Shown: piece by piece, positions 6,574 through 8,851 of the stretch
Position numbering within the stretch: the first letter of the stretch is position 1
How the letters are laid out: every line of letters starts with the position of its first letter
IMG/VR virus record: IMGVR_UViG_2874951433_000004
Strand: one strand, 5' to 3'
Origin: a virus
Taxonomy: Duplodnaviria > Heunggongvirae > Uroviricota > Caudoviricetes
Length of the DNA stretch: 33,353 nt
Translations under genes and position numbers: made by a program
Notes under the pieces: model-generated
Told to the model about the DNA's origin: nothing
What the model saw: only the letters and a program-made list of their open reading frames with translations
Database searches by the model: none

Positions 6574-6784
6574 GTATATGAGATAGTCTTCTATCGAATC
6601 CTATGTGCTACGTGATGATTCGGATAAGAATTATCCTCATGAAATCTGTAAAGCTAATACCCACACTGAAAAATAGAATTTACGTACAACACGCTTAAAG
6701 AGGTGAAAAATATGAATAGCACAGTTTAAAGTTGATGACTTCCTGATTGAGTTAAGTTTTAACTCTCAGAAAGTTTTAAAAGGC

Positions 6785-8755
6785 TTGGAAAAAGCCGAGA
6801 AACAAACAATGCAGGTAGCATCACGAATTGAGAAGCGACTAAATAAAGCTTTTAAAGTTAATCCTGCGCCTTTAAATGACTCTCTCAAACTAATGGAAAA
6901 GAATGTCGATAAGACTGTTTCCAAGATTGAGCAGCGTCTTAAAAACACTAGAGCGTTTAAGATTAAAACGGAAATTGAGGATACTTTAAAGCCACTTAGA
7001 CAGCCAAGACAGCCACGAATTAGCGGCAACAGAGCAATCACAGCGGCTTACTCAGCTAATATGTCTAAGCTAAAAGGCTTTGACCCTATTTTGCAGAAAT
7101 ACATCAAATCTCAGTTTTACGGGCTATCTGCTAAAGCCGGGTCAATGGATTCTTCAAAATTCAATGAGAAGTTAGCTCAGTTAAACGCTTCAGTCAGAGA
7201 AGCAATTGCTAAAGCCAGAGGTCATACATCCACCAGCATTAATGGTGACAGAGCAGCTAATAGTCTTGATAACCTGTCTTCAGCAGCAGTTAAAACAGCA
7301 GGTGCATTTATCTCAATGCAGGCTGTATTAGCCAGTTATCAGAAGATTATGGAAATTGGTTTACAGCGTGCAAGTGCTGAACGTTCAATTGATTTCGTAT
7401 TTGATAAAGATGCAGGTCAAGTAAAAGAGTTCACAAAGTCATTAGCTCAAACAACGGGTTTAGATATCGCTGAACTGCAATCACAGTTTGCTGGTTTTGG
7501 TGCTTCAGCTAAAGAGTCTATGGGTATTCAAGGTTCTGAAGAACTTTTTAGAAATATGATTGGCTATTCTCGTTTAATGGGTCGAAGTGAGGAAGAGATT
7601 AAGCGAGCATTAACAGCATTATCACAGATGGCTGGTAAGGGTCAGATTATGGCTGAAGAGCTTAAGGGGCAACTGGCTGAAGCTGTTCCTGGTATGGTTC
7701 AGGTATTCGCTAAAGCAACCGGAAAGAGTGAACAGGAATTATTTGATGCCATGAAGAAGGGGGCTTTAAAATCTGCCGATACTCTTCAGAAGGTCACTCA
7801 GGAACTGAATAGACAAATCACCGCTAAAGGTGGCTGGAAAGCCATTTCAGAAAGTACACAGGCACAACTAGGGAACCTGAAAAACGCTTGGAATACCACG
7901 CTTGATAGTATCTTCAGAGGTTCTGAAAATGGTCTGCAAGATTTCACACGAAGCCTAACAACGCTTTTAAACAGTTTAGGTGGAAGCGGTAAAAGTCTTG
8001 GTGAATCTCTTGGTAGTCTCATGACTTCTATGTCAAGTGGTGTGGATAGCCTGACCGATATCAGTTACAGAGTGAGAGGTTTCTTTGATGAGGTGACATT
8101 GGCTTATCGTGGTTTAACCGATGAACAAAAGAAAGTAGTTGATGCTTTAGGTTCTGGCTTGATTAATAGTTTAAAAGTCTTGGCTGGTGTTATTGCTGTA
8201 AATAAAGTTGTTGGTGTAACCAGAAGTATTTACGGGCTTATGACTGCTATCACAAGATTAGGTCAGGTTGCTGATACTACAGCGGATAACGTGAATAGAA
8301 AGAATGGGAAACCATCAAGACTAAACCCTATGAATATGCTATTAGCTGGTAGTGCTATCTATGCAGGTTATGAAAGATTAGCTTCTACACCTGAACGAAT
8401 GGAAGCACAAGCTAAATTACCAGAGCTAGCTAAAGAGTCTGGACTTAAACCAGTGTTCACTATGGACGATGTTAAAGGTTGGTTTAGTAGTGCAGCTGAT
8501 AAAATTGCTAACTTCCAGCATCCAGAATTAAACAACATTAAGCAAGATTCAGCATTAACGAGTGCAGATATCCAAAGCCTGAGAGATGAAATTAGTGCTT
8601 TGAGCAAACGTATTCAGGAGCCTGTGAAAGTTTCACTTGGTGGTGAAGTTGCCATTAAACCAGATGAAACCAGCTTTATGACCTTTAGCAGTAATATCTA
8701 CGACCAATACGCAGAAGCTACGCTATTAAGTTCATCATTCCCAGAAGATGATTGA
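6785..8755 (+). CDS. phage tail tape measure-like protein
   Basis: ORF track 656 aa; contains the tape-measure domain signature (...MAGKGQIMAEELKGQLAEAVPGMVQVFAKATGKSEQELFDAMKKGALKSADTL...); start uncertain (track start is TTG; a strong RBS plus ATG at 6712 is out of frame). Confidence 0.65.
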   Translation: MEKAEKQTMQVASRIEKRLNKAFKVNPAPLNDSLKLMEKNVDKTVSKIEQRLKNTRAFKIKTEIEDTLKPLRQPRQPRISGNRAITAAYSANMSKLKGFDPILQKYIKSQFYGLSAKAGSMDSSKFNEKLAQLNASVREAIAKARGHTSTSINGDRAANSLDNLSSAAVKTAGAFISMQAVLASYQKIMEIGLQRASAERSIDFVFDKDAGQVKEFTKSLAQTTGLDIAELQSQFAGFGASAKESMGIQGSEELFRNMIGYSRLMGRSEEEIKRALTALSQMAGKGQIMAEELKGQLAEAVPGMVQVFAKATGKSEQELFDAMKKGALKSADTLQKVTQELNRQITAKGGWKAISESTQAQLGNLKNAWNTTLDSIFRGSENGLQDFTRSLTTLLNSLGGSGKSLGESLGSLMTSMSSGVDSLTDISYRVRGFFDEVTLAYRGLTDEQKKVVDALGSGLINSLKVLAGVIAVNKVVGVTRSIYGLMTAITRLGQVADTTADNVNRKNGKPSRLNPMNMLLAGSAIYAGYERLASTPERMEAQAKLPELAKESGLKPVFTMDDVKGWFSSAADKIANFQHPELNNIKQDSALTSADIQSLRDEISALSKRIQEPVKVSLGGEVAIKPDETSFMTFSSNIYDQYAEATLLSSSFPEDD

Positions 8756-8851
8756 TAATAGTCGAATGCTACGTGAAATCTTCTGAACAGATATATCCAC
8801 TGAAAAATAATTTTTACGTAGCTCACGCTTAACAGAATAGGAATAACAACA

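Follow-up and report, generated by a model that had tools for sequence, protein, structure and literature searches.

A portable inverted-repeat cassette, possibly an operator/promoter/leader unit, upstream of phage-derived tail genes in a yecE-inserting chromosomal island of Escherichia coli

The IMG/VR virus record IMGVR_UViG_2874951433_000004, a stretch of 33,353 nucleotides hereafter called the window, contains a tape-measure-like gene followed by a gene for a Dit-like baseplate protein, and the regions immediately upstream of the two genes share several sequence motifs. This raises the question of what the shared sequence is, and what it might do for the genes that it precedes. An earlier note had described it as a conserved promoter or leader class, used throughout an AT-rich element and recognized by a dedicated factor like the middle or late promoters of phages. 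The AT-rich stretch (positions 1-9625; about 34-46% GC vs 50-59% over most of the remaining window) is, however, not a phage but a chromosomal island that inserts into yecE. As delineated by comparison of its natural variants, the shared sequence forms a cassette of some 75-80 bp, which combines an inverted repeat of 55 bases with a promoter-like core and a short leader. We estimate an approximately even chance that it constitutes a portable operator/promoter/leader cassette. Further, it belongs to an undescribed inverted-repeat family that is shared with phage P1 and other temperate phages.

No direct repeat in the window ranks above the pair formed by the two copies of the cassette (59 nt, 71% identical without gaps), and the motifs reported by the earlier note lie where it had placed them (Table 1). 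Their 20-nt core, TTTACGTA-N3-CACGCTTAA, occurs twice in the window even at 3 mismatches, against 0.03 expected occurrences, which is far beyond chance, and exact CACTGAAAAATA is likewise restricted to these two copies. Copy 1, upstream of the tape-measure gene, is equivalent to copy 2, upstream of the baseplate gene, with a 27-nt insertion between GCTACGTGA and AATCT. In copy 2 the arms of the inverted repeat are 11 nt long, 91% complementary and 33 nt apart, while a search for arm pairs detected none in copy 1, where the inverted repeat is degraded. Copy 2 is intact and copy 1 looks degraded, with its repeat split by the insertion, no arm pair, and an ATA in place of the start codon of the downstream gene. 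The ATG at 6712 opens just a 5-codon frame (MNSTV*), and the tape-measure frame begins at the ATA at 6716, the position of the ATG in the relatives. The relatives also retain an overlapping upstream open reading frame (ORF) of 6 codons, e.g. ATGAACAATGGCACAATTTAA (window region 6712-6730). The 27-nt insertion has a TGA on each flank, and is elsewhere found only in the island locus L012.

More than 24 distinct copies were assembled from a genome scan that included E. albertii and Citrobacter, a pattern scan of IMG/VR and further E. coli loci. The copies display a fixed layout: (T/G)GCTACGTGA(A/T), 36 nt, TT(T/C)ACGTA, either GCT or CAA, CACGCTTAA, and the ribosome-binding site. The distal arm can be represented as GCTACGTGAA and the proximal arm as TT(T/C)ACGTAGC, with 44-45 nt from start to start in all copies except the tape-measure copies of the window and L012, where the distance is 71 nt. 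The middle 36 nt are pieced together, as in a mosaic, from a small set of alternative blocks, though they always end in AAAA(A/T) followed by a hexamer of the form TA-N3-T, whose last T is the first base of the proximal arm. Invariant across the copies are CTACGTGA, ATA, CA, AAAA, TA-N3-T, ACGTA and CACGCTTAA. In an ungapped comparison, the pairwise identity of the arms and leader is 0.85-0.97, as against about 0.4-0.6 in the flanking coding DNA.

Within the islands the cassette is narrowly deployed. An nhmmer profile finds just two full sites per island, along with a degenerate relative at 1112-1230. Each of the 21 island loci examined has the baseplate copy. The window, L012, L013, L020, L022, L027, L035, L054 and L060 also have the tape-measure copy, which is missing in L001, L059 and L061. 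Other genes of the island have ordinary promoters of the form TTGACA-17-TAnnnT (3104-3132, 5090-5118), and the claim that the motif is used throughout the AT-rich element thus fails. Blastn searches recovered the cassette in 455 of 5,426 complete E. coli genomes, in all cases on the chromosome.

Identical middle blocks are encountered in the tape-measure copies of one island and the baseplate copies of another; for example, the middle of the tape-measure copy in the window is that of the baseplate copy in L020. The copies therefore recombine, and variable gene alleles lie on both sides of the cassette. Such exchange could imply that the sequence is a selfish or passive palindromic element, similar to a miniature inverted-repeat transposable element, or a mere recombination junction for tail-gene alleles, with no regulatory role of its own. 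The mosaic middles, the swapping of alleles exactly at the cassette, its presence/absence polymorphism before the tape-measure gene, its terminal inverted repeats of 10-17 bp and its occurrence in unrelated mobile elements (see below) are all compatible with this proposal. However, a comparison of filled and empty sites reveals no target-site duplication, there are one or two copies per element rather than many, and none occurs in the window outside the island sites. Moreover, the cassette always lies 20-40 nt before a start codon, in a single orientation and with a conserved leader and ribosome-binding site. Hence, we consider a purely selfish or junctional nature to be rather improbable. The ends of the island in L001 show no resemblance to the arms, and the possibility that the arms are an attachment site of its recombinase was rejected.

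We favor instead the interpretation as an operator/promoter/leader cassette because of the position of the terminator, the type of conservation seen in the hexamer, the lack of a -35 element, the fixed spacing of the arms, the gene-proximal location of the sites across the family, which in P1 is inside a mapped promoter region, and a T-for-C change that distinguishes the island copies. An intrinsic terminator lies directly before copy 1, which follows it by 10-35 nt, and all island relatives have this terminator ahead of their tape-measure gene, irrespective of the presence of the cassette; where the tape-measure copy is missing, it runs directly into the ribosome-binding site. Therefore, any tape-measure transcripts that do not arise by read-through must start inside the cassette. 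The TA-N3-T hexamer is invariant in 21 aligned copies, at about 30-45 nt before the ATG, a suitable placement for the -10 element of a canonical sigma-70 promoter. It assumes the forms TAGAAT, TATTTT, TAGATT, TAATTT and TAGTTT, and as its outer positions are fixed and the inner three vary, it bears the signature of a -10 element. In contrast, no TTGACA-like -35 is found at 16-18 bp from it, and the aligned copies have no conserved -35, its expected position falling in the mosaic, non-conserved part. A core without a -35, situated just after a terminator, thus fits a regulated promoter that needs a factor. To this extent the earlier note was correct in recognizing a conserved promoter-like module, with the A-tract and hexamer retained, and its suggestion of a dedicated factor is in keeping with these features, though the scope and origin that it assigned to the module were wrong and it does not look like a helper-phage promoter.

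Accordingly organized, the cassette would comprise three functional parts: the inverted repeat, the promoter-like core within it, in which the A-tract is followed by a TAnnnT that abuts the proximal arm, and the short leader into the ribosome-binding site. It would provide the baseplate gene, and in some island variants also the tape-measure gene, with a controlled transcription start of its own, predicted to lie near the A/G of ACGTAG (at about 6686 and 8820). The arms would most likely form a two-part operator for a DNA-binding protein, with one arm at about -7 to +3 and the other at about -52 to -42, and the bound protein might turn the weak -35-less promoter either on or off.

Several observations weigh against this proposal. 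A consensus scan returned no convincing sigma-70 promoter, its best match being TGAACA-16-AATAAT (9/12) in copy 2 only, and promoter-like sites are not in excess in the region (30 vs 25.4 in shuffles). The TAnnnT is partly the degenerate palindromic partner of the distal-arm extension AATCTG, and its conservation may therefore be inherited from the repeat. The centers of the arms are 45 bp apart, i.e. 4.3 helical turns and out of phase, and the window and L012 tolerate the 27-nt insertion; cooperative binding is hard to reconcile with either feature. The -10 mapped in the P1 relative discussed below is in the distal arm, rather than beside the proximal arm. The sequence CTACGTGAA also occurs inside coding regions, namely the HNH gene and one tape-measure allele. 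Finally, no candidate regulator was found among the island proteins. A 95-aa island protein (3737-4024) was considered as a potential ribbon-helix-helix regulator and rejected, as it gave just a weak match to DndE (E 0.018) and no fold match.

The wider relationships of the cassette emerged when IMG/VR was scanned with the arms alone (CTACGTGA-N36-TTYACGTA). Besides islands and chance matches, the hits included many unrelated viral contigs whose arms continue past the search pattern, with the consensus (GCG)CTACGTGAA(A/T)TCTG ... CAGA(A/T)TT(T/C)ACGTAG(CGC). The distal arm is followed by A[AT]TCTG in 10-12 of the 33 non-island clusters, and in seven of the 33, five or more of the six bases of the arm extension are complementary, where about 0.2 such clusters would be expected. 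Since this complementarity lies outside the search pattern, the extension of the family is not circular. The island cassette itself possesses the family arms, CTACGTRAA and TTYACGTAG, at 44-45 nt from start to start. In P1-like phage-plasmids the relatives are located between cre and the immunity genes coi and c1; they are also found directly 5' of genes for Cre-like recombinases (L074, L088, L096, L099), upstream of terS and after lysis genes (L083, L091), and between terS and terL (L066). The arms, spacing and leader recur at 20-40 nt before start codons, with a leader of the form CAC(GC)TTA in the islands, P1, L069, L077 and L066. After the proximal arm P1 has CAC-TTAGCACCACCAATCAATCAGAGGTGAAAAATG, L069 CACGCTTACTTAGCCAATCAATCAAAATAGAGGTG and the island tape-measure copy CACGCTTAAAGAGGTGAAAAATATG; from these related leaders and ribosome-binding sites it follows that repeat, leader and ribosome-binding site move together, in one orientation, before different genes.

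Phage P1 (AF234172; L119) offers one of the closest comparisons. At nt 117-177 it contains an unannotated inverted repeat with 17-bp arms, GCGCTACGTAAAATCTG, 26 nt and CAGATTTCGCGTAGCGC, which match the island in the sequence and spacing of the arms. This repeat lies between P3cre and cra in the cra-cre region, with 30 nt between the end of its proximal arm and the cra start, a position comparable to that in the islands, and the leader and ribosome-binding site are related (CAC-TTAGC...AGAGGTGAAAAATG in P1 vs CACGCTTAAAGAGGTGAAAAATATG in the island). The distal arm contains the annotated -10 (TAAAAT, 124-129) of the promoter P3cre/pR1, and hence the family sits in a mapped promoter region, although the P1 annotation assigns no function to the repeat. 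There are differences too. In P1 the -35 of the promoter (TTGATC, Dam-regulated) is located outside the repeat and the -10 in the distal arm, whereas the island copies have a G at that -10 position (TGAAAT) and instead possess the TAnnnT next to the proximal arm. The first position of the latter hexamer is T in all island copies and C in P1-type copies (TAGATT or TAGAAT vs CAGATT), and the T-for-C change yields a better -10 in the islands. The loops differ too, being GC-rich with an inner stem in the P1-type versions, and A-rich and conserved in the islands. The ArgR/PepA sites near loxP were also considered, and set aside because they are located across loxP from the repeat and do not bind (PMC2409434).

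BLASTP searches identified no protein common to the islands and the other carriers of the repeat, and the binding factor is therefore probably host-encoded. One may go further and propose that one regulator, probably a host protein, uses the arms as its operator in P1-like phage-plasmids, in other temperate phages and in the islands alike. In that case unrelated mobile elements would have grafted a common switch onto genes that need timing. Its targets in the island would be the tape-measure and baseplate genes of Felix O1 derivation, perhaps for a satellite-type hijacking of tails or interference with tail assembly against Felix O1-type phages. We advance this extended proposal only tentatively, and regard it as unlikely to hold in its entirety. 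We found no literature on the repeat.

The same arms could alternatively act in RNA, by pairing as a hairpin 5' of the ribosome-binding site in an mRNA reading through from the tape-measure to the baseplate gene, and thereby affect processing, stability or translation. The arms do pair in minimum-free-energy folds (z -2.1 for copy 2 and -3.5 for the Citrobacter copy), and the P1-type relatives fold into long hairpins (-20 to -31 kcal/mol) that often contain a GC stem inside. The loop tolerates the 27-nt insertion, itself a small hairpin, and the C/T variation in the proximal arm preserves G-C or G-U pairing. However, there are no compensatory double changes, the outer pairs are broken in the CAA and TCTACG variants, and copy 1 folds no better than its shuffles (z -0.67) and has no detectable arm pair. 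The island loop is conserved in sequence (A-tract, CCAC, ATA), and little upstream RNA should cross the terminator just before copy 1. In P1 the annotated P3cre start lies inside the repeat, so that the distal arm is not transcribed. No match to an Rfam family (Rfam 15) was obtained over the cassette in the window or in the P1-type relatives. Taken together, an element acting at the RNA level seems a minor prospect. Nor does the cassette have the form of an intrinsic terminator: the proximal arm is followed by CTCACGCTTAA rather than a U-run, and a terminator scan did not list it.

Promoters that lack a -35 and depend on an activator are a feature of the late genes of temperate phages and their satellites, as in the P2/P4 Ogr/delta, Mu C/Mor and P1 Lpa systems. 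The cassette resembles them in combining a TAnnnT-type -10 without a -35 with an upstream symmetric element, and in its location before morphogenesis genes, which such promoters also precede on a satellite (P4). It differs from them in several respects. There is no TGT-N12-ACA in the cassette, and the -22 box AAGTGACTT, 4 nt upstream of the -10, seen in the six annotated P1 late promoters that we extracted, is lacking. Its second arm lies across the predicted start site, an arrangement more often met in the operators of repressors. By eye, the cassette contains none of the T4 late and middle boxes and no P2/P4 dyad.

A different parallel is offered by the PeSL elements of T4-type phages, which consist of consensus sigma-70 promoters with a GC-rich terminator stem-loop and occur in many copies around ORFans (PMC2839356). 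Like these, the island cassette is a short repeated intergenic sequence before genes with promoter and stem-loop features, and the homologous exchange at PeSL cassettes that shuffles flanking modules (PMC2839356) is also met in the islands. Unlike the consensus sigma-70 early promoters of PeSLs, the island cassette has no -35; its arms flank the promoter-like core with no U-run after them, and there are just two copies, placed before tail genes. As for an adjacent terminator stem-loop of the PeSL type, copy 1 is preceded by a terminator, copy 2 by none, and the hairpin of the arms has no U-run.

The phage connection of the island prompts yet another interpretation, namely that the cassette is a late or middle promoter class of a Felix O1-type helper phage, read by a dedicated phage factor, such that the island tail genes fire with the late genes of the helper. 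Both genes are indeed homologous to tail genes of such phages: the baseplate protein shows 69% amino acid identity to that of the Felix O1-like phage HMD-P10 (BLASTP), and the tape-measure protein 29% to its counterpart in the same phage. The core without a -35 would be in keeping with this, and the control of Felix O1 transcription is not known (PMC3185647). One exact CCACTAAAAAATAAT beside a TTGACA, upstream of the HMD-P10 tRNA cluster, is a marginal point in its favor. Nevertheless, when the HMD-P10 genome was scanned with patterns and the nhmmer profile, as the earlier note had proposed for related phages, the arm and leader motifs were not found, and the best profile match had an E-value of 4 or higher; CTACGTGA occurs once in its 88 kb and CACGCTTAA zero times. 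Blastn of the cassette against 50,697 phage records gave no match. In HMD-P10 the tape-measure and baseplate genes abut, with neither a spacer nor an intergenic promoter between them, and it is P1-like and other temperate phages, rather than Felix O1-like ones, that carry relatives of the cassette. Consequently, the notion of a phage middle or late promoter is not borne out, and we judge a helper-phage promoter class to be quite unlikely.

HMD-P10 (L006; 15200-21000 and 32780-32840) has repeated intergenic cassettes of its own before small early genes, in the form of a stem-loop plus ...CCTTAAACTAGGAGATTCAAAAATG. The 15-mer of its single CCACTAAAAAATAAT adjoining TTGACA matches the island loop CCACTGAAAAATAAT in 14 of 15 positions.

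Sequences reminiscent of the cassette are also strewn elsewhere in the island. The 8-mer CTACGTGA is its most over-represented, with 4 copies, all on the plus strand, against 0.12-0.14 expected. The ORF-free left region has CTACGTGAAA at 1112-1121 with TCTTCGTAGTCCCTTCTTAA (1156-1175) after it, at the 44-nt spacing of the cassette arms, and CAGAATCTACGTAGATGCTTCTTA (1207-1230), which includes CTACGTAG (1213-1220), is similar to the proximal half of the cassette. TACGTA-N7-CTTA is exact only at 1214, 6681 and 8815. The non-coding stretch around these boxes is generally conserved; the boxes are partly kept in L012 and L027 but mutated (ACGT>ATGT) in L001. The earlier note had listed the motifs near 1117 and 1214 with the promoter class; they exist, though we treat them as degenerate relatives of the cassette. 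Similarly, the ACACTTAGAGG that it placed before the gene at 5536 is present (5517-5527), and its resemblance is restricted to the context of the ribosome-binding site.

The clustering of CTACGTGA-type boxes in the ORF-free left region, along with the location of some relatives between the two terminase genes, or between terS and the lysis genes, a frequent place for cos and pac sites, might be taken to indicate a DNA-level packaging or replication site (pac, cos or ori) that is used when the island is mobilized. Yet the two copies are 2.1 kb apart and each is tied to a start codon, the P1-type copies are in the cre control region and not at pac, and the motif is missing from the genome of the presumed helper; such a role is very improbable.

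The island to which the cassette belongs can be recognized from its matches to E. coli chromosomal islands of about 11 kb. In strain PEC395, yecE (DUF72) is split by the island, at one end of which is a gene for a large serine recombinase. In the window, the island is cut at 9625 by insertion sequence (IS) elements, with the loss of the recombinase end; the IS cluster that truncates it spans 9626-15517, and the part of the window beyond the island is lambdoid prophage DNA. The island codes for a 277-aa protein, several small proteins without assignment, an HNH endonuclease, and the tape-measure and Dit-like baseplate proteins. None of the small proteins was assigned by Pfam, PHROG, NCBIfam or PADLOC, the last covering defence systems. 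There are no capsid or terminase genes in the island (window 1-9625; L001 6001-17169). It could be a phage satellite or an element that interferes with tail assembly against Felix O1-type phages; searches by sequence strings and by island features found no paper on it. In a Citrobacter relative (L004 7036-8837), and likewise in several E. coli islands, an IS21-like element interrupts the tape-measure gene.

The island also includes a 2.3-kb stretch (window 840-3180) with no convincing ORFs on the plus strand, which is conserved among the islands. It contains repeated boxes of about 30 nt at 926, 972, 1145 and 1201 and, on the minus strand, a small hydrophobic ORF from an ATG at 2899, with a promoter-like site at 3097-3068 and a terminator-like site at 2706-2683. 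A second repeated upstream element is present at 2908-2999 and 4532-4659, in blocks that are 86-87% identical. It has 26-nt inverted arms (4537-4562 and 4634-4659), 71 nt apart, which end just before the gene at 4681, and may represent another type of inverted-repeat-flanked cassette in the same island.

Table 1. Positions in the window of the two cassette copies, their component motifs and the associated features
Feature	Position	Strand	Remarks
Cassette copy 1	6593-6711	+	5' of tape-measure gene; read from sequence, repeat search, variant comparison
Copy 1, TCGAAT	6595-6600		
Copy 1, distal arm GCTACGTGA	6607-6615		
Copy 1, 27-nt insertion	6616-6642		carries palindrome GGATAAgaaTTATCC
Copy 1, TGAAATCT	6640-6647		
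Copy 1, CACTGAAAAATA	6664-6675		
Copy 1, -10-like TAGAAT	6674-6679		
Copy 1, TTTACGTA	6679-6686		
Copy 1, proximal arm TTTACGTAC	6679-6687		
Copy 1, leader box CACGCTTAA	6690-6698		13 nt before ATG 6712
Copy 1, Shine-Dalgarno GAGGTG	6700-6705		
Cassette copy 2	8761-8851	+	5' of baseplate gene; read from sequence, repeat search, variant comparison
Copy 2, TCGAAT	8762-8767		
Copy 2, GCTACGTGA	8768-8776		
Copy 2, distal arm GCTACGTGAAA	8768-8778		
Copy 2, mosaic middle	8779-8811		
Copy 2, CACTGAAAAATA	8798-8809		
Copy 2, A-tract and -10-like TAATTT	8808-8813		
Copy 2, TTTACGTA	8813-8820		
Copy 2, proximal arm TTTTACGTAGC	8812-8822		
Copy 2, leader box CACGCTTAA	8824-8832		19 nt before ATG 8852
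Degenerate relatives	1112-1230	+	ORF-free left region
Extra CTACGTGAAA	4391-4400	+	within HNH endonuclease ORF; recurs in L011, L012, L013
Intrinsic terminator	6533-6573	+	GGGAGAG...CTCTCCC and T-run; closes upstream operon, directly before copy 1
Tape-measure-like gene	6716-8755	+	Pfam TMP_3, PHROG 4036
Dit-like baseplate gene	8852-9625	+	Pfam Dit_like, PHROG 3721, BLASTP
IS3-family element	9958-10000 (pseudoknot)		ALIL frameshift pseudoknot, broken orfB
Second IS3-type transposase gene	10732-11550	-	
IS110-family transposase gene	14321-15517	-	

Should the cassette be a regulated promoter, it would indicate the time at which an uncharacterized island, carried by 455 or more of the 5,426 complete E. 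coli genomes, turns on its phage-derived tail genes. The timing of these genes would be a first handle on whether the island is a satellite of Felix O1-type phages or a defence against them. Finding the binding factor would also explain a neglected feature of the cre control region of P1, a classic model, and could reveal a control signal common to unrelated mobile elements.

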